DNA of 37,088 nt from Patescibacteria group bacterium (GCA_024654525.1 JANLHI010000013.1:84036-121123), one strand, 5' to 3'; counted from the first letter of the stretch, positions 3,001 through 19,186 are shown. Translations and numbers: made by a program. Notes: a model not told the origin generated them from the letters alone.

Positions 3001-3303
3001 ATGAAAATCAAACAAAAAGACACCCTCTTAAACATGTTTAAGACTCTAAGCGAAATAGCCCGCCTTGATATAGTTTTGCTCCTCACCTCGGGTGAAAAAT
3101 GCGTCTGTGAGATATTTAAAAACCTAAAACTTCCGCAAAATCTTGTTTCGCACCATTTGAGAATTTTACGACAAAGTGGCTTAATCATAAATCGCAAGCA
3201 AGGAAAATGGGTTCACTATTCTCTCAACAGAAAAAATATTAAAGAATTGCAAAAATTATTAACGAAGATCGGCACGGCTAAAGAAAAACCGCCAAAATAT
3301 TAG
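3001..3303 (+). CDS. arsR: ArsR/SmtB family metalloregulator
   Basis: EKCVCEI alpha3 Cys motif, SHHLRILRQSGLI HTH segment and RKQGKWVHYSL wing. Confidence 0.92.
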   Translation: MKIKQKDTLLNMFKTLSEIARLDIVLLLTSGEKCVCEIFKNLKLPQNLVSHHLRILRQSGLIINRKQGKWVHYSLNRKNIKELQKLLTKIGTAKEKPPKY

Positions 3304-3336
3304 TTGTTATTTAGTAATTACTGTAGTTCAAACACT

Positions 3337-3618
3337 ATGGCAACATATACATATATATGTTCAGGATGTGGAAATGTTTTCGACATTGAAGCAACGGTTC
3401 AAGAGAAAGAGGAGGGAAAAAGCGAAAAATTTATTTGCCCGAAATGTCAGTCGAAGGATATCAAGCAGAAATTTTCTGCCGGTAATTTTATTAAAAATGT
3501 TTTTCAGACGAATAAAAAGGGCGGTGGGTGTTGTTTCGGTGGAAATACTTGCGGGGCCGGTTGTAAGCAGGAAGAGAAAGACAAAAAGACAACCAGTAAT
3601 GGGGGCTGTTGCGGATAA
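3337..3618 (+). CDS. FmdB-like zinc-ribbon protein with a Cys-rich C-terminal tail
   Basis: MATYTYICSGCG...CPKCQS zinc ribbon; tail GGGCCFGGNTCGAGC...GGCCG; start taken at ATG 3337. Confidence 0.8.
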   Translation: MATYTYICSGCGNVFDIEATVQEKEEGKSEKFICPKCQSKDIKQKFSAGNFIKNVFQTNKKGGGCCFGGNTCGAGCKQEEKDKKTTSNGGCCG

Positions 3619-3633
3619 AATCCGCAAAAGTAT

Positions 3634-4593
3634 ATGATTCAACAATTCGCAGACTGGCTTATTTATTCCGTATTAAATTTTGATCCTGCCTCAAAATTAG
3701 GGAGCAGTATCAATTTTTTTGTATATGACACGGTAAAAATCTATTTGTTGATTTTAGTTATTATCGGAGTTATTGCGTTTATCCGGACATTTCTGCCACC
3801 GCATAAAATCAAAGAGCTGTTTTCAAGGCAAAGGTTTGGAATGGGAAATCTTTCGGCTTCAATACTCGGCGCGGTCACTCCTTTTTGTTCTTGCTCGTCT
3901 ATCCCCGTATTTGTGGGTCTTTTGAAAGCGGAAATGCCTTTGGGGATAGCATTCTCTTTTATCATAACTTCTCCTCTGGTTAATGAGGTTATTTTTGTTT
4001 TAATGGGAGGAACCTTTGGGTGGAAGATTGCTACCATCTACGCCTTGTTTGGAATTGCTTTGGGAGTTATCGCGGGAATGATTATCGGGAGAATGAAATT
4101 GGATAAAGAAATACTTTTGAAGTTTGATGATGCTACGGGAGAAAAGTTATCTCTTGAATATCTTCCCAAAAGTATTGAGGGTAAGATTCAATACTCGCTT
4201 CAAGAAGGTGTTGCCACCTTTAAAAAACTTTGGCTGGTTATTGCTATCGGGGTGGGAATAGGCGCCGTGATACATGGATATGTTCCGGCGGAATTTTTTG
4301 AACAATATCTCAATATTAATTCTTTGTTAGCCGTCCCCATTGCCACATTAGTGGGAATACCAATTTATGCGGGATGTTCCACCCTCGTACCGGTAGTATT
4401 CGCTTTGGTCGGACAAGGAATACCTCTCGGTACAGCTCTTGCTTTTATGATGTCCATTGCCGGACTATCTTTGCCTGAGGCGATTATGCTCAAAAAAGTA
4501 ATGACCGCCAAATTGCTCGCACTATTCTTTGGAGTGGTTGCTGTAGGAATTATTTTGATTGGTTATTTATTTAATTTTTTATTAGTGACGTAG
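3634..4593 (+). CDS. ArsP/DUF318 family permease
   Basis: Multi-TM protein with TPFCSCSSIP, SPLVNE and GLSLPE motifs; co-oriented with arsR. Confidence 0.88.
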   Translation: MIQQFADWLIYSVLNFDPASKLGSSINFFVYDTVKIYLLILVIIGVIAFIRTFLPPHKIKELFSRQRFGMGNLSASILGAVTPFCSCSSIPVFVGLLKAEMPLGIAFSFIITSPLVNEVIFVLMGGTFGWKIATIYALFGIALGVIAGMIIGRMKLDKEILLKFDDATGEKLSLEYLPKSIEGKIQYSLQEGVATFKKLWLVIAIGVGIGAVIHGYVPAEFFEQYLNINSLLAVPIATLVGIPIYAGCSTLVPVVFALVGQGIPLGTALAFMMSIAGLSLPEAIMLKKVMTAKLLALFFGVVAVGIILIGYLFNFLLVT

Positions 4594-4695: not shown

Positions 4696-5694
4696 TTAAA
4701 ACCAATTAAAGAGCTTCGCGAGGAAGAGAACGTACAACGAAAGATAGAACATGCCTTCCCATAAGTGTATCTGCCTTGAGATTCCGGAGATGACAAAAAG
4801 AAGCGTAGCGAAGCCCATTGCGGGGAGACCTATTAAGAATGTTTGGCTGTCCACGGGAAGTGTGCCGAGTAACCCCGGAAGGCCGATCACCACCATGCCG
4901 TTGAAGACGTTGGAACCGAAGATGTTGCCGAGCGCAACTTCAGACTTCTTCAGCAAGGCGGCTTTCGCCGAGACCAAGAGTTCCGGAAGCGATGTGCCGA
5001 CGGCGACTGCGGTGATGGCGATGACGCCGGTGCCGATATCAAGCATTGTCGAGAGATTCACCAAAGCATCAATGAGATATTTCGCGCCGATGACAAGTCC
5101 TAAGATGCCGATAATGAGCAACGCAATATCTTTGACGGTGATTTTTTGCGGGACCAATGCTTCCTGTTCGTGCGCGACGATATGCCCTTTTCGCTCCACA
5201 CGGGACGACAGGACTTCGGTAATGCCGGCCGCTTCATGGTCAATATCCTTGTGCATCACCGTGTAAAGCAGGTAGATGCCGTAGGTTACGAGAAGCAGAA
5301 TAGATTCGCCCAAAGTTACCTGCATGTCCCACGCGACGCCAAGCAGAAGCACGGTGCTGATGGAGAGGAGCGGTAAGTCGAGATCAATAAGGCTCTTTGT
5401 TACGACTAGGCGTTTACCGATGACCGCCGAGATACCTACGATAAGAAGGATGTTCGCGATATTAGAACCGACGGCATTCGCCACGACGACATCGGGAACT
5501 CCCTTAAACGCGGCGACGAACGAAGAGATGAGTTCGGGGAAAGACGTACCGACACCGACGATTGTAACGCCCACGATGAACGGCGAAAGACCCATGGCAA
5601 GGCCGATTTTTTCGGCGCTCACGATGAGCCAATCCGCTCCCTTAACGAGGAGCGCGAGAGATAAGATGAAAACGACTATCCAAAAGATGAGCAT
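4696..5694 (-). CDS. Calcium/sodium antiporter (YrbG/CaCA family)
   Basis: Two alpha repeats GTSFPE...GSNIAN and GTSLPE...GSNVFN; about 10 TM helices. Confidence 0.93.
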   Translation of the reverse strand: MLIFWIVVFILSLALLVKGADWLIVSAEKIGLAMGLSPFIVGVTIVGVGTSFPELISSFVAAFKGVPDVVVANAVGSNIANILLIVGISAVIGKRLVVTKSLIDLDLPLLSISTVLLLGVAWDMQVTLGESILLLVTYGIYLLYTVMHKDIDHEAAGITEVLSSRVERKGHIVAHEQEALVPQKITVKDIALLIIGILGLVIGAKYLIDALVNLSTMLDIGTGVIAITAVAVGTSLPELLVSAKAALLKKSEVALGNIFGSNVFNGMVVIGLPGLLGTLPVDSQTFLIGLPAMGFATLLFVISGISRQIHLWEGMFYLSLYVLFLAKLFNWF

Positions 5695-5797
5695 ACGTTA
5701 GTGAGATGTATACCTTGATATGAGTAAAAGCCATACCACTATAGCACCGCCTGAGATAACAGGCTAGAAATTATAGAGCAACTCTCCGTGTGTGGCA

Positions 5798-6958
5798 TTA
5801 TTCTCCTATTTTTTGTCCCCCTGCTTTTTTTAAAATATCTGAATCAAAGATATATGTTGTTTTTTGTTGTGAAACAAAACGTTTTTCTGCGAACGCAATT
5901 AATTTAGTAACAAGTTCTACTCCCGAAACACCAACCTTTTTCCAATTATGATGATAAAGACTTCCCGGAAGGGTGTTTACTTCATTTACATAAACCTGCT
6001 TGGATGATCCATCGACTAGAAAATCAATCCTCGCTATCCCAGAACATCCAAGCGTGCGATACGTTTTCTTTCCTAAATCTTCCACTTGCTTCGCAAGTTC
6101 CCCGTCAATATTTGCTGGAATCTCGCTATATTGACTATTCGCTCCACCACCCTTTTTATTTCCCGAGAGATATTTATCGCTAAAATCAAAAAACTCTGTT
6201 TTGTTTAGTGGTCGTTCTACTGCCGCTAGTTGTAATTCCTCGTTGCCCATAATAGGAAGGGTTATCTCGATAAGATTTTCTACGCTTTCTTCCACAAGTA
6301 CCTTATCATCATAATGAAAAGCAACCTCGATGGCATTTTCAAGTTCAGAATTTTGCTTGACCTTGGTAATAGCAATACTAGAACCAAGATGGACTGGCTT
6401 CACAAAAACCGGCCAATTTAGTTTAGCGATCTTTTCTATCCAAATACTTCTATTTATTTCCCAATCATTTTTTGTGAACCAAACATACGGCACGACCGAA
6501 ATACTTTCGGCGGTCAAAACTTGTTTTGTTAAAACCTTATCCATCGCAACCGCAGAAGCAAATAAGTCGCAACCCACAAAAGGAATGCCCGCCATGCGTA
6601 GAAGACCCATCAAACTCCCGTCTTCACCAAAAGTGCCATGCATGGCAGGAAAAGCAATATCAATTTGAATCGTTTTCGATCTGATCCCCGGCCAAATAAT
6701 TTTTAGTCCATTATCAAACAGAATTTGGACTTTTTTTTGTCTCGCCAAGTATGCCTGAAAATTATCTTGCGTGAAGTACGCAAGGTCGTTCATCGCTTGA
6801 TCGGAATACCATGAGCCATCTTTGGCGATGTAAATCGGCCAAACATCAAATTGTCCCGTTGCGAGAAGGGATTGAATAATGGGTGTATGTGCAGTGATGA
6901 TTGATACATCATGTTCAGCGCTACGACCTCCAAAAATAACCGCGATAGTTTTTTTCAT
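5798..6958 (-). CDS. ddl: D-alanine--D-alanine ligase family (ATP-grasp)
   Basis: FGGRSAEHDVS, HGTFGEDG, AMDK, VKP..LGSS, DKY omega loop, ARIDF and NEVNTLPG motifs. Confidence 0.93.
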   Translation of the reverse strand: MKKTIAVIFGGRSAEHDVSIITAHTPIIQSLLATGQFDVWPIYIAKDGSWYSDQAMNDLAYFTQDNFQAYLARQKKVQILFDNGLKIIWPGIRSKTIQIDIAFPAMHGTFGEDGSLMGLLRMAGIPFVGCDLFASAVAMDKVLTKQVLTAESISVVPYVWFTKNDWEINRSIWIEKIAKLNWPVFVKPVHLGSSIAITKVKQNSELENAIEVAFHYDDKVLVEESVENLIEITLPIMGNEELQLAAVERPLNKTEFFDFSDKYLSGNKKGGGANSQYSEIPANIDGELAKQVEDLGKKTYRTLGCSGIARIDFLVDGSSKQVYVNEVNTLPGSLYHHNWKKVGVSGVELVTKLIAFAEKRFVSQQKTTYIFDSDILKKAGGQKIGE

Positions 6959-6973
6959 AGTATTTATTCTAAA

Positions 6974-8407
6974 TTATTGATATTGATCAGGCCAGTCATT
7001 TTGTAATAACATCACATCACCTTTCACAGTCAAAAGCGGTAAAGCGGCAAAGGCCGCAAGTGCGTCATCAAACCATATCACTTCGCCCTTATATCCCTTT
7101 TCTTTTAAACCTTGTTCAATGTGAGATGTTACAGAATTTTTAATCAAAATAACTTTTTCTATGTTTGCCTCCGCTAATTGTTTGCCAATTTGCTTATGTA
7201 TCTTCTCGGTTCGCAGACCCATTTCTACAAGACCGGGCGTAACATAAAATCTCCGGCAATCTTTCAAAGACGCTAAAAACGCAATTACCGCCTTAACCCC
7301 GTCGGGGTTGCCATTGTAGCTATCATCTAGAGTAATTACCCCGGTAGTATCAGTTTTTGGCTCTAAACGATGATCAAAGGGTATTGTCTTACTGATACCA
7401 TCTCTCACCTGATCGAAAGATAGTCCGAGATTCAAGGCGATTTCAGCAGAGGCCGCAAGGGGGCCGATTTGGTGCAAGCCTAAAAGCGCTGATTTCAATT
7501 CCAGTTTTGCACCATTCTTTGTCAGGGTAAATGATGTTCCAGTCAGGTCAGTTTTCGGATTCTCAATTTTCCAATCTCCTACATGCCCACAATCGTACAT
7601 GATATGACCGGAGCGAGCATTTTTCCGCGCAAGCTCATTTTCGCCATTTACATAAATTGGTTTTTCTCCAAGATAATCTGCAAGTTCGTAAATTGTCTTA
7701 ACCGTTCGTTCCAATGATTTGAATTTTTGTAAGTGTGCCTCATTCACGCCAGTGATAACTCCCATATTTGGCTGAACGAGATCACATAATTTTTGTACGT
7801 CACCCGGATAGTATTCTCCCAATTCAAAAACTAAAATCTCCTCATCTCCCTTCAGTGTTTTTACAAACTGACTAATTCCCAGTAGGGTATTGTAACTGTG
7901 TGGCGGAGCCGCCACTTTTTTTCCTTCAGATAAAACAGTTTTGAGAATTTCGCGCATGGTTGTTTTACCAAAACTTCCCGCAATGCCTATTTTCACGGCA
8001 GTATGGGTTTTTAGTTTTTGTTTCGCCTTGCTAATTATTAAGTACTCAACCGGCCACTGAATTATGATTCTAATGACGAGAAGTGGAATAATTATTCCAT
8101 AAGCTAAAAAATATGGTGAAAAAAGTACAATCAAAAACGGAAAAATATATTTTAGCGAACTTGTGTTAATCCATAGTATGGAAATTGCTGTACCAATAAG
8201 GAAAAAGAGGAAAGCCCATGCAATAACGAGTAGCAAAAGTCCTTTTGCAGTCCTTACAAATCGCTTTCGTTGTTCCACGCGAGTAAAGTTTTTTGTTTTG
8301 TGATACCACACCAAATAATCACGAATGTTGTATTCGCTCGCTTGAAGCATATACACGAGAAATCGTGGGTAGCGTAAGTTGTAGCGTGATAGCCAATTTT
8401 TTATCAT
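6974..8407 (-). CDS. murF: MurF-like Mur ligase with N-terminal transmembrane helices
   Basis: GIAGSFGKTT P-loop, SYNT..G, DDSYNGNP and PGLVEMG motifs; hydrophobic N-terminal region in place of the usual N-domain. Confidence 0.82.
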   Translation of the reverse strand: MIKNWLSRYNLRYPRFLVYMLQASEYNIRDYLVWYHKTKNFTRVEQRKRFVRTAKGLLLLVIAWAFLFFLIGTAISILWINTSSLKYIFPFLIVLFSPYFLAYGIIIPLLVIRIIIQWPVEYLIISKAKQKLKTHTAVKIGIAGSFGKTTMREILKTVLSEGKKVAAPPHSYNTLLGISQFVKTLKGDEEILVFELGEYYPGDVQKLCDLVQPNMGVITGVNEAHLQKFKSLERTVKTIYELADYLGEKPIYVNGENELARKNARSGHIMYDCGHVGDWKIENPKTDLTGTSFTLTKNGAKLELKSALLGLHQIGPLAASAEIALNLGLSFDQVRDGISKTIPFDHRLEPKTDTTGVITLDDSYNGNPDGVKAVIAFLASLKDCRRFYVTPGLVEMGLRTEKIHKQIGKQLAEANIEKVILIKNSVTSHIEQGLKEKGYKGEVIWFDDALAAFAALPLLTVKGDVMLLQNDWPDQYQ

Positions 8408-9153
8408 AAAAACTCTTGTACTAGTTTTGAGACCTCTTGCGATTTTTCTTTATGAACGAAATGTCCAGATCCGCGTATTACCTTCAATTGAGAATCAACA
8501 ATCAGTCCGGCTAATTTTTTCCCATCAGACAAGGGTGTTTCAGTATCGTTCTCGCCCCAAATCAAGAGCGTCGGCATTGCTATTTTCTTTGCGCTTACAC
8601 TTAGGTTTTCAGAGATAATTTTCAAAAAAGTTTCTTTCAATTTTCCGGTGTTCAGGTAATCGCTGCCAATAAAACTATACATTCTTTTTCGTAGTCCTTC
8701 CCTCCAAAAAATTAAAGGTGGAATATAGGTTATCAGTCCTCCGATTTTGGCCAAAAGTTTTAAAGTCGAATTGCGAAATGTACGGTTTTTAGCGATACCC
8801 GCGGAACCGATGAGTATAATTTTTTGTGCTTGAAGATTTTTTGTGGCTTCGCCTTTTATGACAATTCGTCCGCCAAAGGAATGACCAACAAACGCATAAA
8901 CTTGAATATCAAGCTTTTCGATAAAATCCTTAACGAATTGAATATAGTTATCTAAATTCCAAGCTTCTTGCGGTACTTCACTTTTACCAAAGCCGGGTAG
9001 ATCGAGTCTGATTATTCTTCGTGTTGGGGATAAAAGAGACGCTAGGGAATCAAAAGTATGAAAATTATCTTGCCAACCATGCAAAAAAAGCAGGACTTTG
9101 CCAGTGCCCTCGTCTTGGTATTCTGTTGCTAAATCTTGAACAATAATTTTCAT
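8404..9153 (-). CDS. Alpha/beta-fold hydrolase
   Basis: LHGW oxyanion motif, GHSFGG nucleophile elbow, WGEND and GSGHF; overlaps the murF start by 4 nt. Confidence 0.92.
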   Translation of the reverse strand: MKIIVQDLATEYQDEGTGKVLLFLHGWQDNFHTFDSLASLLSPTRRIIRLDLPGFGKSEVPQEAWNLDNYIQFVKDFIEKLDIQVYAFVGHSFGGRIVIKGEATKNLQAQKIILIGSAGIAKNRTFRNSTLKLLAKIGGLITYIPPLIFWREGLRKRMYSFIGSDYLNTGKLKETFLKIISENLSVSAKKIAMPTLLIWGENDTETPLSDGKKLAGLIVDSQLKVIRGSGHFVHKEKSQEVSKLVQEFL

Positions 9154-9162
9154 TGTTTAATT

Positions 9163-9420
9163 TTATTTTTCCGGCGGTTTGATTATCGCCGCTTTAGGAA
9201 AAACCGTGTTTCCGCCAATTTTTTCGGCTAGCTTTCTGCGCAACAATTCAAGTTGAAAGTCACTATGAGATATTTTAACTGTGCCATAAGAGGCCACCGG
9301 AAGTCCAGCAGTTTTCAATTTCATTTGCGTTTGCGGTGCGTTATAGCGCCACCACTCATCGGCATACGCTTCCAACCCGACCTCTTTTATTTTTTCAATC
9401 TAGCCACCCGGATTTTTTCG
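9163..9420 (-). pseudogene. Remnant of a D-Ala-D-Ala dipeptidase (VanX/DdpX, peptidase M15D) C-terminus
   Basis: The frame reads RKNPGG*IEKIKEVGLEAYADEWWRYNAPQTQM..AGLPVASYG, resembling the VanX NRxxL..M...GF..Y..EWWH motif; in-frame stop, His replaced by Arg, no intact N-terminus. Confidence 0.55.
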
Positions 9421-9584
9421 CCGAAACCTTGGTGTAGGCGGTCAGTTTTGAACAAGTTGCATTTGGTGTTCTGCCTGTGAGGTTTTCGGGCAGTGTGGCG
9501 GGACTAATGAGGATTCCACGGACAAGTCGGCAGGGTGAAACAATTGACTGGAGGTCTTCTGAAATTCGGCGGCTCATTTCTGAA

Positions 9585-10184
9585 TTAAAACTTCAAGATA
9601 AAAATGACCAGAAACGGAACAAGTATAGTCAAAACGATTCCGCTAAAGACTGATATTATCGCATATTCCTTTCCTGCAAATTTAGTAATGATGGGAAGTG
9701 TCGTGTCCATTGAAGTTGCTCCTCCCGACGCTATTGGGGCAAGTTTTCCAAAGTATCTTAAAAGCAAAGGCGTGAGCAACAATGTGCTTATTTCTCGAGA
9801 TATATTAGATATCAAAGCCACAACTCCAAGCGCCTCGCCGCTAATTTTTGTTATGAAGATACTCGACAAGCTGTAATAACCAAAACCTGCCCCAATAGCC
9901 AATGATTCACGCAGTCCAATATCAACAAAAAGCGACATTATAGTGACACCAAAAAATGTTCCTATAATAACTGTCAGTGGCACTAAGATAATTTTCAGCT
10001 TTGCATTTTTGAGCACTTCCCAAGCTTTTTTGTCAGAGCCAATTCCTACGCCAACTAAAAACATCAAAATATAAAGAGCGTAAACACTGAAATCAGTTTC
10101 AATGAAAATTTTCGGCAATAGATTATACAAACCTATGAGGATTCCGAGGACAAAAAAGCCAACGATGATGAGTGAGTTTTTCAT
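9585..10184 (-). CDS. LysO/DUF340 family transporter, large subunit
   Basis: GFGYYSLSS, NISRE and GGATSMDTTLP motifs. Confidence 0.88.
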   Translation of the reverse strand: MKNSLIIVGFFVLGILIGLYNLLPKIFIETDFSVYALYILMFLVGVGIGSDKKAWEVLKNAKLKIILVPLTVIIGTFFGVTIMSLFVDIGLRESLAIGAGFGYYSLSSIFITKISGEALGVVALISNISREISTLLLTPLLLRYFGKLAPIASGGATSMDTTLPIITKFAGKEYAIISVFSGIVLTILVPFLVIFILKF

Positions 10185-10456
10185 TCGTTTGTCTTAAAGA
10201 AAATTTTATGCACGAAATATGCAAATACAACACTTCCCATAACTCCTCCAAAAGTCAGTAGCAACGCTTGTACGCCAAGCGTTGCTAAATTATTTATGAC
10301 AGTTTCGTTTATTCCCACCGACACGCCCAATAAAAAGAGGAGGGCGTAAATAGCAACGTTGATTGATGGATCAACGAACTTAATAATCTTCACTTTGTTT
10401 TGAAGTAAAAATCCGAGAATAATTCCTACCGCCATTAATATTAGGACTGTAAACAT
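10181..10456 (-). CDS. LysO/DUF340 family small membrane protein
   Basis: About 91 aa with 3 TM helices and LLFLLGVSVG.N; start at ATG 10456; coupled to the next gene. Confidence 0.8.
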   Translation of the reverse strand: MFTVLILMAVGIILGFLLQNKVKIIKFVDPSINVAIYALLFLLGVSVGINETVINNLATLGVQALLLTFGGVMGSVVFAYFVHKIFFKTNE

Positions 10457-10466
10457 ATTTTTTACA

Positions 10467-11081
10467 TTAAACTTTCGCAATAACTCGCACTGGTGCGGCT
10501 TCGGTATGTAATTTCGCTGGTAAGGCAAAAATCTCAAAATCTTTTATACCAAGTAGCGATTCCAAATTTGTAAGATTTTCAATAATAAGAATTTCCTTTC
10601 CAAGTAACAATTTATGAACTTTGAAAGGCGGTCTGTCAGGACTTGGTGTATCCATGCCAACAATTTTTACTCCAAGCTCAATTGCCTTACCAGCAAAATC
10701 CTCACTGATTTCGGGATATTTTTCATAATATTCTGGATGGTGATATTTTTTTGAGAAACCAGTCATTACCAAAACAATATCCCCTTTCTTTGCGGAACTC
10801 CTGTCTAAAAAATCAACGTTGATTATTGGCGCACCTCTCGCGTCAATCAAACAGCCTCTGCCAAGAAACTTTTCAACAGCAATATCAGAAAGTCGCTTGC
10901 TTCCCTCCAACATGTGGAGAGGTGCGTCCATGTGTGTTCCAACATGCATTCCAGTTTTTATTTGATAATCGGTATATCCCTCTTTGTGCAAATCGGCTAT
11001 CTGCGTAAATTCTGGAATCGGATCGCCGGGGTATACCGGCATGTCAGTATTAAATGTATGTGTTAGGTCAATATATTTCAT
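10467..11081 (-). CDS. Cyclase family metal-dependent hydrolase (kynurenine formamidase-like)
   Basis: DLTH, PVYPGDP, HVGTHMDAPLH, GMDTPSPD, IIENL and APVRVIA motifs. Confidence 0.92.
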   Translation of the reverse strand: MKYIDLTHTFNTDMPVYPGDPIPEFTQIADLHKEGYTDYQIKTGMHVGTHMDAPLHMLEGSKRLSDIAVEKFLGRGCLIDARGAPIINVDFLDRSSAKKGDIVLVMTGFSKKYHHPEYYEKYPEISEDFAGKAIELGVKIVGMDTPSPDRPPFKVHKLLLGKEILIIENLTNLESLLGIKDFEIFALPAKLHTEAAPVRVIAKV

Positions 11082-11085
11082 ACTT

Positions 11086-11195
11086 TCATTTCACTAATTT
11101 TTCCATAGGAACGCCTAACGCTTTGGCGATTTTCGCCATAGTTTGAATGCTTGGCTTAATAGCCACACCACCCTCAATTTTCGTAAGGGTATCGA
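11086..11195 (-). pseudogene. Truncated XRE-family HTH regulator
   Basis: DTLTKIEGGVAIKPSIQTMAKIAKALGVPMEKLVK matches the C-terminal half of a Cro/C1 HTH; the upstream sequence lacks helices 1-2. Confidence 0.6.
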
Positions 11196-11292
11196 ACTCT
11201 TGTGGAGTTTCGTTTTTTCCTTGAAACAAGCCGCCAATTCCGAACAAGTTAGTTTTGCTTCCGCCGTTTCGCTCCTCCAAGAAATAATTTAA

Positions 11293-12195
11293 CTACGGCA
11301 GGCTTTCGCACGCAAGACCGTCTTCGTCTTTGTCTAATCTGTGGACATCATTATTAATTCCTCCACAAGCTTCATATATTGATTGCGCTTCCGCATGAGT
11401 GTAAAAATCTGAACAATTATATGCGTTGTATGAACACTCATAGCCCGCAGGTGATGGAGGAGTTTGGCTTGTTTGCGTTTCCGTTGTCGTGGTAGTTTCT
11501 GCAGTATCACATACTCCGTCAGCCCATAGACCATTTTTCAGTATTCGCGCCCGATTTTCCGCATACTGAAATTCTGTTTGATATTTGTATGGAATTGTAT
11601 AAGTGTATTCAAAACCATAGCCATCCTCTATCATCATTTTGTTGAAAAGAGATCCATTTTCAAGATAAGCATAGGCGAGAATCCGTCCGTACTTATCAAG
11701 TTCTCCTTGCGTAGGGTCTTGCTCTAATTTAACTCTCTGACCGCTCAATATCTGTTTTGCCTTGTTTGAGGCCTCTTGTCCAAAACATTCCACTGGCTTG
11801 CTCGGATGTACAGTTTCGGGGGTGTCTAATCCAATCAGGCGTATTGTCTGAACAACACCGTCTCTGTCTACACTAAAAGTGTCGCCGTCCACAACTTTTA
11901 CTATTGGATAAAATACTTCAACTCGCTGTTCGTTTGCAGCTTGTTGGATATTTTCTTTTTGTTGTGGGGTTAATTGGTCTGTTGATTTTATAGGTTCTGT
12001 TTCTTGCAAAATAGGTTGAGTGAGTTTTTTATCTACAGGCACATTTTTTACTGTTTTATCTTTACTGATATCTTCTTGCCCAACCACCGACGAGTCATTT
12101 TCGTATTTCATACTTCTGTCCGAAAAAATAATCACGGTTGATAACGCTAAAACCGTGATTATTGCAACTATGATTTTATTGCTTAAAAAAGGCAT
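11293..12195 (-). CDS. Membrane-anchored thermonuclease (SNase-like) with a C-terminal Excalibur Ca-binding domain
   Basis: N-terminal TM; VVDGDT, IRLIGLDTPE and DKYGRILAY motifs; C-terminal NCSDF..HAEAQ...LDKDEDGLACE. Confidence 0.9.
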   Translation of the reverse strand: MPFLSNKIIVAIITVLALSTVIIFSDRSMKYENDSSVVGQEDISKDKTVKNVPVDKKLTQPILQETEPIKSTDQLTPQQKENIQQAANEQRVEVFYPIVKVVDGDTFSVDRDGVVQTIRLIGLDTPETVHPSKPVECFGQEASNKAKQILSGQRVKLEQDPTQGELDKYGRILAYAYLENGSLFNKMMIEDGYGFEYTYTIPYKYQTEFQYAENRARILKNGLWADGVCDTAETTTTTETQTSQTPPSPAGYECSYNAYNCSDFYTHAEAQSIYEACGGINNDVHRLDKDEDGLACESLP

Positions 12196-12223: not shown

Positions 12224-12307
12224 TGGTGCCCGGGGAGAGACTCGAACTCTCAAGGGTTGCCCCACACGATTTTGAGTCGTGCGCGTATACCATTCCGCCA
12301 CCCGGGC
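12224..12307 (-). tRNA. tRNA-Leu(CAA)
   Basis: GCCCGGG acceptor stem, anticodon arm CACGA-CTCAAAA-TCGTG, long variable arm, GTTCGAGTC T-loop and encoded CCA. Confidence 0.96.
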
Positions 12308-18938: not shown

Positions 18939-19010
18939 GCGCCCTTAGCTCAGTGGCAGAGCGTTCCCTTGACATGGGAAAGGTCGTAAGTTCGATCCTT
19001 ACAGGGCGCA
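18939..19010 (+). tRNA. tRNA-Val(GAC)
   Basis: GCGCCCT/AGGGCGC acceptor stem, TTCCC-TTGACAT-GGGAA anticodon arm, GTTCGATCC; CCA not encoded. Confidence 0.95.
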
Positions 19011-19111: not shown

Positions 19112-19186
19112 GCGCGTGTAGTTCAGTGGTAGAACGCTGTCCTGATAAGACAGAGGTCGAAGGTTCGATTCCTTCCACGCGCACCA
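19112..19186 (+). tRNA. tRNA-Ile(GAT)
   Basis: GCGCGTG/CACGCGC acceptor stem, CTGTC-CTGATAA-GACAG anticodon arm, GTTCGATTC and encoded CCA. Confidence 0.95.

Follow-up and report, generated by a model that had tools for sequence, protein, structure and literature searches.

Here we describe three adjacent genes on the minus strand of a 37,088-nucleotide stretch of DNA from a Patescibacteria group bacterium (GCA_024654525.1, JANLHI010000013.1:84036-121123; the whole stretch is called the window below, and positions are counted from its first letter). Between positions 5798 and 9153 they encode an alpha/beta-hydrolase, a MurF-type ligase with a predicted membrane anchor and a D-alanine--D-alanine ligase (Ddl). 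Both MurF and Ddl are essential, serve as targets of antibiotics and, in textbook accounts, are soluble cytoplasmic proteins. The module in the window looks like a membrane-bound form of this core MurF-Ddl step of peptidoglycan synthesis and not like an alternative or accessory route: the step that concludes the cytoplasmic part of precursor synthesis would be built into the membrane, with the uridine diphosphate (UDP)-binding domain of the ligase gone and a serine hydrolase from outside the textbook pathway coupled to it.

Gene order of the trio and its conservation

The original prediction had described three tightly linked genes with a 4-nucleotide overlap and a 15-nucleotide gap, and the exact coordinates of the three minus-strand open reading frames (ORFs) confirm this. 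The gene for the hydrolase, an EstV-like serine esterase (8404-9153; 249 residues; Pfam Abhydrolase_1/6 and Hydrolase_4), ends in an ATGA at 8404-8407 that joins its stop to the start of the ligase gene (6974-8407; 477 residues; Pfam Mur_ligase_M and Mur_ligase_C from residue 142 on). A spacer of 15 nucleotides (6959-6973) then separates the ligase gene from the gene for a DdlA-type Ddl (5798-6958; 386 residues; Pfam Dala_Dala_lig_N and Dala_Dala_lig_C).

We fetched 80 related loci, 79 of which hold a usable ligase ORF, and counted neighbours at those with enough flanking sequence. The hydrolase gene lies directly upstream on the same strand at 70 of 71 loci, with the same 4-nucleotide overlap at 49. 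A Ddl gene follows within 3 kb downstream at 62 of 64, always on the same strand, and at 32 of these 62 the spacer is at most 25 nucleotides or a small overlap. From 201 genomes sampled independently and evenly across the phylum came 17 loci of the first tier (the clade that holds the window ligase), with the hydrolase found at 15/17 and Ddl at 14/16 (9 on the same strand). Chance cannot explain a gene order that recurs at 70/71 loci for the hydrolase and 62/64 for Ddl. The survey of the triplet thus finds the linkage to the hydrolase conserved, and the earlier view of the three genes as a functional unit stands.

More distant relatives share part or all of this arrangement. A second tier of ligases (510-616 residues, with extra N-terminal helices) has the hydrolase upstream at 10 of 18 loci and Ddl at 0 of 18. 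These loci (L105 and L107-L124; for example in genomes G024, G101, G026, G053 and G188) carry an operon of hydrolase, long ligase, DegT-type aminotransferase and FemAB-family transferase, with glycosyltransferases present too, and a search with TIGR01205 at E ≤ 1e-20 found no Ddl in 9 of 16 second-tier genomes, one of them a complete single contig. Among Clostridia-type long forms (35 metagenome loci), whose representative has relatives that their sources label as Clostridia or Clostridiales MurF, the hydrolase lies upstream in 20/20 by listing and in 15/20 by a stricter script, which extrapolates the ligase start from the query length and whose five misses are ligases with shorter or unaligned N-termini; Ddl is found in 18/21. 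When the neighbours of 115 loci were clustered, the hydrolase appeared at 94 and Ddl at 82, with every other family at 26 or fewer; distant first-tier loci also adjoin an alanine racemase and a GT4 MraY/WecA-type gene. Across the sets, these counts make hydrolase and membrane ligase the constant core, which Ddl usually joins as a third gene. The module is widespread in Patescibacteria and present in Clostridia-type organisms.

The genome that carries the window measures 0.99 Mb and is 97% complete, and its close relatives are labelled Patescibacteria by their sources. As had been proposed, the trio lies outside any division and cell wall (dcw) cluster, at least within the window; MurD is encoded on the same contig about 6 kb ahead of the window start, and FtsI and a soluble MurF on contig C1. 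The accompanying idea of an accessory block did not hold up, since GC content is 0.37-0.42 over 6001-9000 against 0.37-0.52 in the remaining window and the genes are core; no foreign-island signature was seen in the window's composition. The 430 bp upstream of the hydrolase gene (9154-9584) contain no long ORF, no Rfam family at gathering threshold and no promoter or terminator above chance. A scan of 5500-9700 gave 8 promoter-like and 4 terminator-like sites where 9.0 and 3.9 were expected, and hence no signal.

The ligase, the Ddl and the hydrolase

The ligase matches PF08245 (3e-21) and PF02875 (1.4e-11) over its ATP-binding and C-terminal Mur ligase domains (residues 136-477; 6977-8002, minus strand), which end in QNDWPDQY, and no Pfam or NCBIfam model matches its first ~135 residues. 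This part opens with a basic, predicted cytoplasmic head (residues 1-55; 8243-8407) that has 13 Lys or Arg against 3 Asp or Glu, forms three short helices in the model and bears the motif Y-x-L-Q-x-x-E-Y, here YMLQASEY. A predicted two-helix membrane hairpin follows (residues 56-118; 8054-8242), with helix 56-80 free of charged residues, helix 88-118 containing a single Arg and seven residues joining the two; Kyte-Doolittle windows of 19 residues reach at least 1.6 across residues 50-125. An AlphaFold2 (AF2) model built from 89 sequences (predicted local distance difference test score, pLDDT, 94.7) places long helices at 54-80 and 88-134, and the basic helix after the hairpin runs into the P-loop. 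Hydropathy and model agree with the earlier description of an N-terminus that combines YMLQASEY with membrane helices. With an N-in/C-in hairpin, the catalytic domains are predicted to be cytoplasmic.

Conservation was assessed in an alignment of 19 diverse family members and in a separate set of 89 sequences. In the head motif Q22 is invariant and Y26 nearly so among the 19, down to 29% identity, and Y19, Q22, Y26, W34 and K55 are nearly invariant among the 89. In the catalytic domains the 89 sequences share the P-loop residues G144, S145, G147 and K148 along with N173, E195, H225, Y364 and G397 without exception, the four P-loop residues, E195 and H225 being invariant in both alignments. R347, D361, D362, N365, D464 and D471 are invariant among the 19 and nearly so among the 89. 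In 133 of the 150 top-ranking cluster representatives, 100 or more residues precede the P-loop; all 133 include a hydrophobic 19-mer there and 110 the Q motif, whereas E. coli MurF has 106 residues ahead of its P-loop and no such hydrophobic segment. A PDB sequence search found no solved structure covering the N-terminal ~135 residues, and the PDB sequence and fold alignments cover only ~300-385 residues or columns. Look-alikes of these 135 residues without Mur domains were sought in a structure atlas and set aside, the best scoring 0.87 against a lead level of 0.9. No fused form longer than 835 residues was found at E ≤ 1e-30, which is weak evidence.

Several comparisons place the ligase with MurF. 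Its best NCBIfam model is TIGR01143 murF (199.7 bits, profile positions 65-403), the next unrelated model being pMurC at 64.6. A profile of the 19 family members matched E. coli MurF (1GG4) in the PDB at 8.8e-59, with MurD, MurC, MurE, MurT and CphA at 1e-22 or weaker, and in a Foldseek search with the model ranks 1-10 were all MurF, over ~360 columns. In a tree of 68 rows (quick search with Shimodaira-Hasegawa-like approximate likelihood ratio, SH-aLRT, support and no bootstrap; E. coli MurC, MurD and MurE and three Patescibacteria MurE as outgroups), the membrane forms share one branch (SH-aLRT 94) inside a MurF clade (96) that also contains E. coli MurF, on a long branch, and the soluble Patescibacteria MurFs (92). 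The Ddl-linked membrane forms make up a sub-clade (99), and the MurF clade stands apart from MurE, MurD and MurC. The original prediction had set MurF beside CapB as possible relatives: the ligase falls in the MurF clade, and CapB/PgsB was rejected, with no such model among 18 NCBIfam families at E ≤ 0.01 nor among 60 PDB sequences. A split resembling cyanophycin synthetase was likewise rejected (CphA 3.6e-9 against MurF 8.8e-59). These results support a ligase derived from MurF in which a membrane segment appears to have replaced the soluble N-terminal domain.

The window genome encodes five Mur ligases: MurC, MurD and MurE (all scoring above cut-off), a soluble MurF and the membrane form. 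The soluble MurF (436 residues) is encoded directly after an FtsI-type penicillin-binding protein (C1:50632-51942) and scores 271.2 bits, under the murF cut-off of 288.6; it ends in LVKGSHAM where membrane forms end in QNDWPDxY. At 22% identity, the two MurF-type proteins are therefore old paralogues. Alr and MraY are also encoded, both above their cut-offs, and MurG scores 237.8 bits, under 250.25. As a separate observation, MurE (C16:72131-73531) and the soluble MurF miss the first ~45-60 positions of their NCBIfam profiles, with matches starting at 46 and 58, so that reduction of the N-terminal UDP-binding domain seems not to be confined to the membrane form but to affect several of the genome's Mur ligases.

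Other genomes indicate that the membrane form can fill the MurF slot by itself. A murF-model search of 36 genomes (19 first-tier, 17 second-tier) at E ≤ 1e-25 found the membrane type only in many of them, and soluble and membrane MurF together in 14 (5/19 first-tier, 9/17 second-tier) as judged by match ranges and ORF lengths. For five near-complete relatives (G131, G063, G037, G114 and G148; 99-100% complete, two of them single contigs) we classified every Mur_ligase_M gene, which number 5, 5, 5, 4 and 3. All fall into MurC, MurD, MurE, MurT, FolC or the membrane form, MurC not being picked up in G148, and no other MurF-type gene is present in any of the five. The membrane ligase must therefore be the housekeeping MurF in these organisms. 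At one locus (L098, G104:C20), a 1338-residue Mur-ligase ORF adjoins the membrane MurF module and matches the murF profile over positions 1-405, with a score of 118.8 bits; this could be a Mur ligase fusion in which an N-terminal domain survives.

The Ddl scores above two cut-offs for D-alanyl-D-alanine (D-Ala-D-Ala) ligases (NF002528, 323.6 bits against 262; TIGR01205, 279.2 against 245.65), whereas all Van-type models stay below theirs (VanG 257.4 against 495, D_ala_D_lac 206.8 against 550, VanA 169.1 against 775, VanC 199.5 against 650). It is the sole Ddl above cut-off in this genome, the second match being a 35-bit fragment of another ATP-grasp protein. Second copies of murF and ddl had been named earlier as something to look for: a second murF does exist, soluble and linked to dcw genes, and a second ddl above cut-off does not. 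In the numbering of E. coli DdlB, residues E15, H63, S150, K215, Y216, R255, D257, E270, N272 and G276, whose functional meaning we take to be that of the Ddl literature, are present in the window Ddl and in 79-80 of 80 related Ddls.

The unusual motifs that had been pointed out in the Ddl, NTLPGSLYHHNW and GSSIA with the omega-loop Lys-Tyr retained (as DKY), are all present. The usual P-G-x-T-x-x-S loop before the second-site serine is absent; the loop is four residues shorter (NTLPG----SLY against NTLPGFTNISMY) and reads PGSLYHHNW in the window. The NTLPGSLYHHNW oddity is best read as a four-residue loop deletion after which Ser-Leu-Tyr and Trp are kept, as the top-scoring alignments with structures of DdlA type have it. 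Aligned to DdlB without a gap, the protein would have His at S281 instead, and we prefer the gapped alignment because S, L/M, Y and W then match. Nearly all linked Ddls inspected have the short loop, distant ones included, the divergent locus L094 being without the motif. Four strong Ddls from Patescibacteria genomes in which the ligase query finds no match keep a long loop of the ordinary kind, which makes the deletion a mark of the Ddl clade that accompanies the membrane ligase.

The hydrolase has an alpha/beta fold, confirmed by model and fold search, and appears catalytically intact. Its triad S92 (GHSFGG), D203 and H231 is invariant in 89 sequences, as are G26-W27 of the oxyanion region and Y166 of the cap; R96 and D165 are nearly invariant. 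The AF2 model has a pLDDT of 88, falling to ~50 in the cap (121-170), which includes a hydrophobic stretch. Neighbours in sequence and fold are generic: aryl esterases, perhydrolases, C-C hydrolases, a polyhydroxybutyrate (PHB) depolymerase, the membrane phospholipase A 6I8W and the monoacylglycerol lipase ABHD6. The best NCBIfam model is the EstV family lipase NF058580, whose positions 15-227 (of 230) align with residues 8-237; since the score is 109.8 bits and the cut-off 300, the protein is a distant relative of EstV and not a member of the family. A prediction of the ligase-hydrolase complex, run without controls, scored 0.00, and we draw no inference from it.

The proposed pathway and its alternatives

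We consider it probable that the module represents, in membrane-bound form, the D-Ala-D-Ala branch of the usual synthesis of peptidoglycan precursors. Ddl would make D-Ala-D-Ala from D-Ala supplied by a separate alanine racemase. The ligase would be a true MurF paralogue in which the basic head and an N-in/C-in hairpin take the place of the N-terminal UDP-binding domain; the hairpin would keep the ATP-dependent catalytic domains at the inner face of the membrane, where D-Ala-D-Ala would be added to the N-acetylmuramic acid (MurNAc)-tripeptide precursor next to MraY. The hydrolase, translationally coupled to the ligase, would be an obligate accessory enzyme of the membrane form, and our best guess is hydrolysis, at the membrane face of the ligase, of an ester or peptide bond in some precursor or by-product that bears a carboxylate. 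We infer the D-Ala-D-Ala donor, the UDP-MurNAc-tripeptide acceptor, the association of hydrolase with ligase and any substrate of the hydrolase. In the window genome the soluble and the membrane MurF may be redundant or divide the work between them. If the acceptor is indeed UDP-linked, the module would represent hard-wired substrate channelling to MraY, with the hydrolase as an unrecognised component of the pathway.

Several observations weigh against this scheme. The ligase score lies under the murF cut-off of 288.6, and the UDP-binding domain 1 of solved MurFs was not found, no match to the ligase starting before profile position 65; a UDP-linked acceptor is therefore not assured. Where E. 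coli MurF and the long forms have the motif H-N-x-x-N, the window ligase has H-Q-I-G-P, and the consensus of the family shows no conserved equivalent of the lysine that we take to be carbamylated in MurD, MurE and MurF. Since the window genome also encodes a soluble MurF that adjoins ftsI and scores higher, the membrane form does not have to be its principal MurF. The deletion in the linked Ddls adjoins the second D-Ala site and could alter specificity. We know of no role for an alpha/beta-hydrolase in precursor synthesis and, as the nearest relatives are generic esterases and lipases, the role proposed for this one is a guess. In favour of the scheme, the MurF of Helicobacter pylori, a possible counterpart of the window ligase, is described in passages of PMC9448923 (citing Blair 2018) as an inner-membrane protein with 'four N-terminal transmembrane domains', where the window ligase has two helices.

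A different acceptor is possible, though we think it unlikely: D-Ala-D-Ala could be added after MraY, to lipid I- or lipid II-tripeptide, much as MurT/GatD modifies lipid II, and in the window genome UDP-linked precursors would then fall to the soluble MurF and lipid-linked ones to the membrane enzyme. The hairpin and its conserved motif would stand in for domain 1, which MurT, an enzyme that acts on lipid II, also lacks; the coexistence of soluble and membrane forms in the window genome and in 14 of the 36 genomes, and the GT4 MraY/WecA-type transferase beside distant members, fit the same picture. A broader version, to which we give a similarly low probability, pictures hydrolase and ligase as a machine of two enzymes at the inner membrane face, completing or repairing the stem peptide of lipid I/II-tripeptide or -tetrapeptide. 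The Y-x-L-Q-x-x-E-Y head would recognise the lipid-pyrophosphate-sugar as domain 1 does UDP, and the machine would constitute a second, membrane-bound pentapeptide route across Patescibacteria, Clostridia and probably Campylobacterota that replaces the cytoplasmic MurF step in many lineages. Yet the soluble MurF and MurE of the window genome are N-terminally reduced as well, so loss of the N-terminal domain is by itself no sign of a lipid substrate. Moreover, MurT models score just 15 bits, these data reveal no lipid-binding site, and genomes with the membrane form only would need a MraY that routinely accepts a tripeptide precursor. Were the acceptor lipid-linked all the same, the order of peptidoglycan steps would differ in a large part of the bacterial tree.

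Salvage or repair is a less likely explanation still. Here the hydrolase would trim stem peptides that are turned over or derived from a host, for example from tetrapeptide to tripeptide, and the ligase would re-extend them with D-Ala-D-Ala, by a logic like that of LdcA, Mpl and MurF. Patescibacteria are episymbionts with reduced biosynthesis; hydrolase, ligase and Ddl nearly always occur together; and the Arg that follows the nucleophile (GHSFGGR; invariant, or at the weakest near-invariant as R96), with the invariant cap Tyr after a near-invariant Asp, could bind a carboxylate. The membrane form is nevertheless the sole MurF in 5/5 near-complete relatives and therefore cannot be merely a salvage enzyme there. 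The same fact, with the Ddl being the only one in its genome, goes against the dedicated side pathway that the original prediction had favoured. Neighbourhood clustering brought no muropeptide importer to notice, though no search was aimed at importers. The hydrolase is also unlike known LD-carboxypeptidases; its relatives are esterases, and a family member in H. pylori is reported in passages of PMC3741291 to be a short-chain carboxylesterase.

Alternative stem-peptide chemistry, in which a variant Ddl makes another dipeptide or a depsipeptide that a variant MurF installs, as in Van-type resistance, seems to us very improbable. It could draw on the deletion beside the second substrate site and the omega-loop insertion that linked Ddls share, and on the distribution of the short loop, present in the inspected linked Ddls except L094 and absent from the four Ddls of genomes without a membrane-ligase match. 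Against this stand a Ddl that is the genome's only one, that passes the D-Ala-D-Ala cut-offs while failing every Van model, and whose omega-loop Lys-Tyr and other mapped residues are kept in 79-80/80; an FtsI-type penicillin-binding protein is also present in the window genome. The depsipeptide or unusual dipeptide suggested earlier is unlikely on the same grounds. A Van-type resistance module was rejected, with the Van models below cut-off and no VanX-, VanY- or VanH-like gene seen in the clustered neighbourhoods.

A role outside peptidoglycan, with the pair modifying another envelope polymer or lipid and the adjacency of Ddl incidental, is just as remote: second-tier ligases keep company with a DegT sugar aminotransferase, a FemAB-family transferase and glycosyltransferases, their loci and many of their genomes show no Ddl and the hydrolase is lipase-like, but Ddl adjoins at 62/64 and 14/16 loci of the first-tier clade, alanine racemase is an additional neighbour and the membrane ligase is the sole MurF in relatives. 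Taken together, we favour a membrane-bound form of the ordinary D-Ala-D-Ala branch.

Other features of the window and comparison with known systems

Outside the trio, the window holds further features. At 3001-4593 an ArsR-like ORF of 100 residues is followed by a Cys-rich ORF of 104 residues, with CxxC pairs and a GGCC-rich tail, and then by an ArsP_1-family permease (Pfam 1.2e-64); together they may be a small metal- or metalloid-handling unit. The lysine exporter LysO (PF03956) is encoded at 9585-10537 as two overlapping ORFs of 118 residues (profile 2-79) and 199 residues (1-189), either a two-gene form or a partial duplication. At 10467-12195 a putative cyclase or kynurenine-formamidase-like gene (PF04199) adjoins the gene for a 300-residue staphylococcal-nuclease-domain protein with a Thr-rich linker and a weak, sub-threshold Excalibur match, which by its domains looks like a secreted nuclease. 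An Rfam scan of the window returned tRNA genes only, three in number (RF00005, 58.6-77.7 bits; 12227-12307, 18939-19010 and 19112-19183).

Literature searches turned up no account of the trio, of the motif at the ligase N-terminus or of any part played by the hydrolase in the cell wall. By term search, the module is unmentioned in the main texts of the papers on the Lipocone, on Patescibacteria transposon sequencing (Tn-seq; Cell 2023) and on MurE-MurF architecture.

Canonical MurF (TIGR01143; E. coli 1GG4, Acinetobacter baumannii 4QF5, Thermotoga maritima 3ZL8) shares with the window ligase the central and C-terminal domains, the P-loop and the Glu, His, Arg and Asp-Asp-x-Tyr-Asn residues; it is the best match in sequence and fold, falls in the same tree clade and is likewise ddl-linked. 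Linkage of murF and ddl occurs in several Gram-positive bacteria. The window ligase differs by its basic head of ~55 residues and two membrane helices, its sub-cut-off score, the H-Q-x-G-P motif, the QNDWPDxY end and a conserved hydrolase partner. The DdlA-type ligases of known structure (PDB 7U56, 3I12 and 2I87) match the window Ddl over its full length (2.5e-60) with all mapped catalytic and substrate residues kept; the window Ddl differs in the four-residue deletion after N-T-x-P-G and in a longer omega loop.

MurT/GatD, the lipid II isoglutaminyl synthase, offers a parallel in overall design, with a Mur-fold subunit that has no UDP-binding domain and a tightly coupled gene for a hydrolytic partner with a nucleophile-elbow fold. 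It acts at the membrane on a lipid-linked precursor, and we know of no membrane helices described for MurT. The window ligase, however, reaches 15.3 bits with NF045635 against a cut-off of 800, MurT chains rank far below MurF, and the partner in the window is an alpha/beta-hydrolase with a complete triad, not a glutaminase.

A parallel for the module as a whole may lie in H. pylori, where EstV is presumably HP0739, situated between ddlA and murF. EstV (family V, NF058580) is the best NCBIfam model for the window hydrolase, which shares the alpha/beta fold and the Ser-Asp-His triad but scores 109.8 bits where the family requires 300. Passages of PMC3741291, citing Ruiz et al. 2007, describe EstV as a carboxylesterase that prefers C2-C6 esters; they characterise it on artificial substrates only and report no cell-wall role. 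The H. pylori MurF, reported in PMC9448923 and PMC9507126 to be an inner-membrane protein with N-terminal transmembrane domains, resembles the window ligase in this respect, and its gene, given as HP0740 with 1485 bp in passages of PMC6501431, comes near to our 477-residue ligase in length. It is described in passages of PMC9507126 as an essential peptidoglycan precursor enzyme that takes part in a membrane-spanning complex with Csd5. With a membrane MurF and an EstV-family esterase both reported from H. pylori, the module becomes testable in a cultivable organism.

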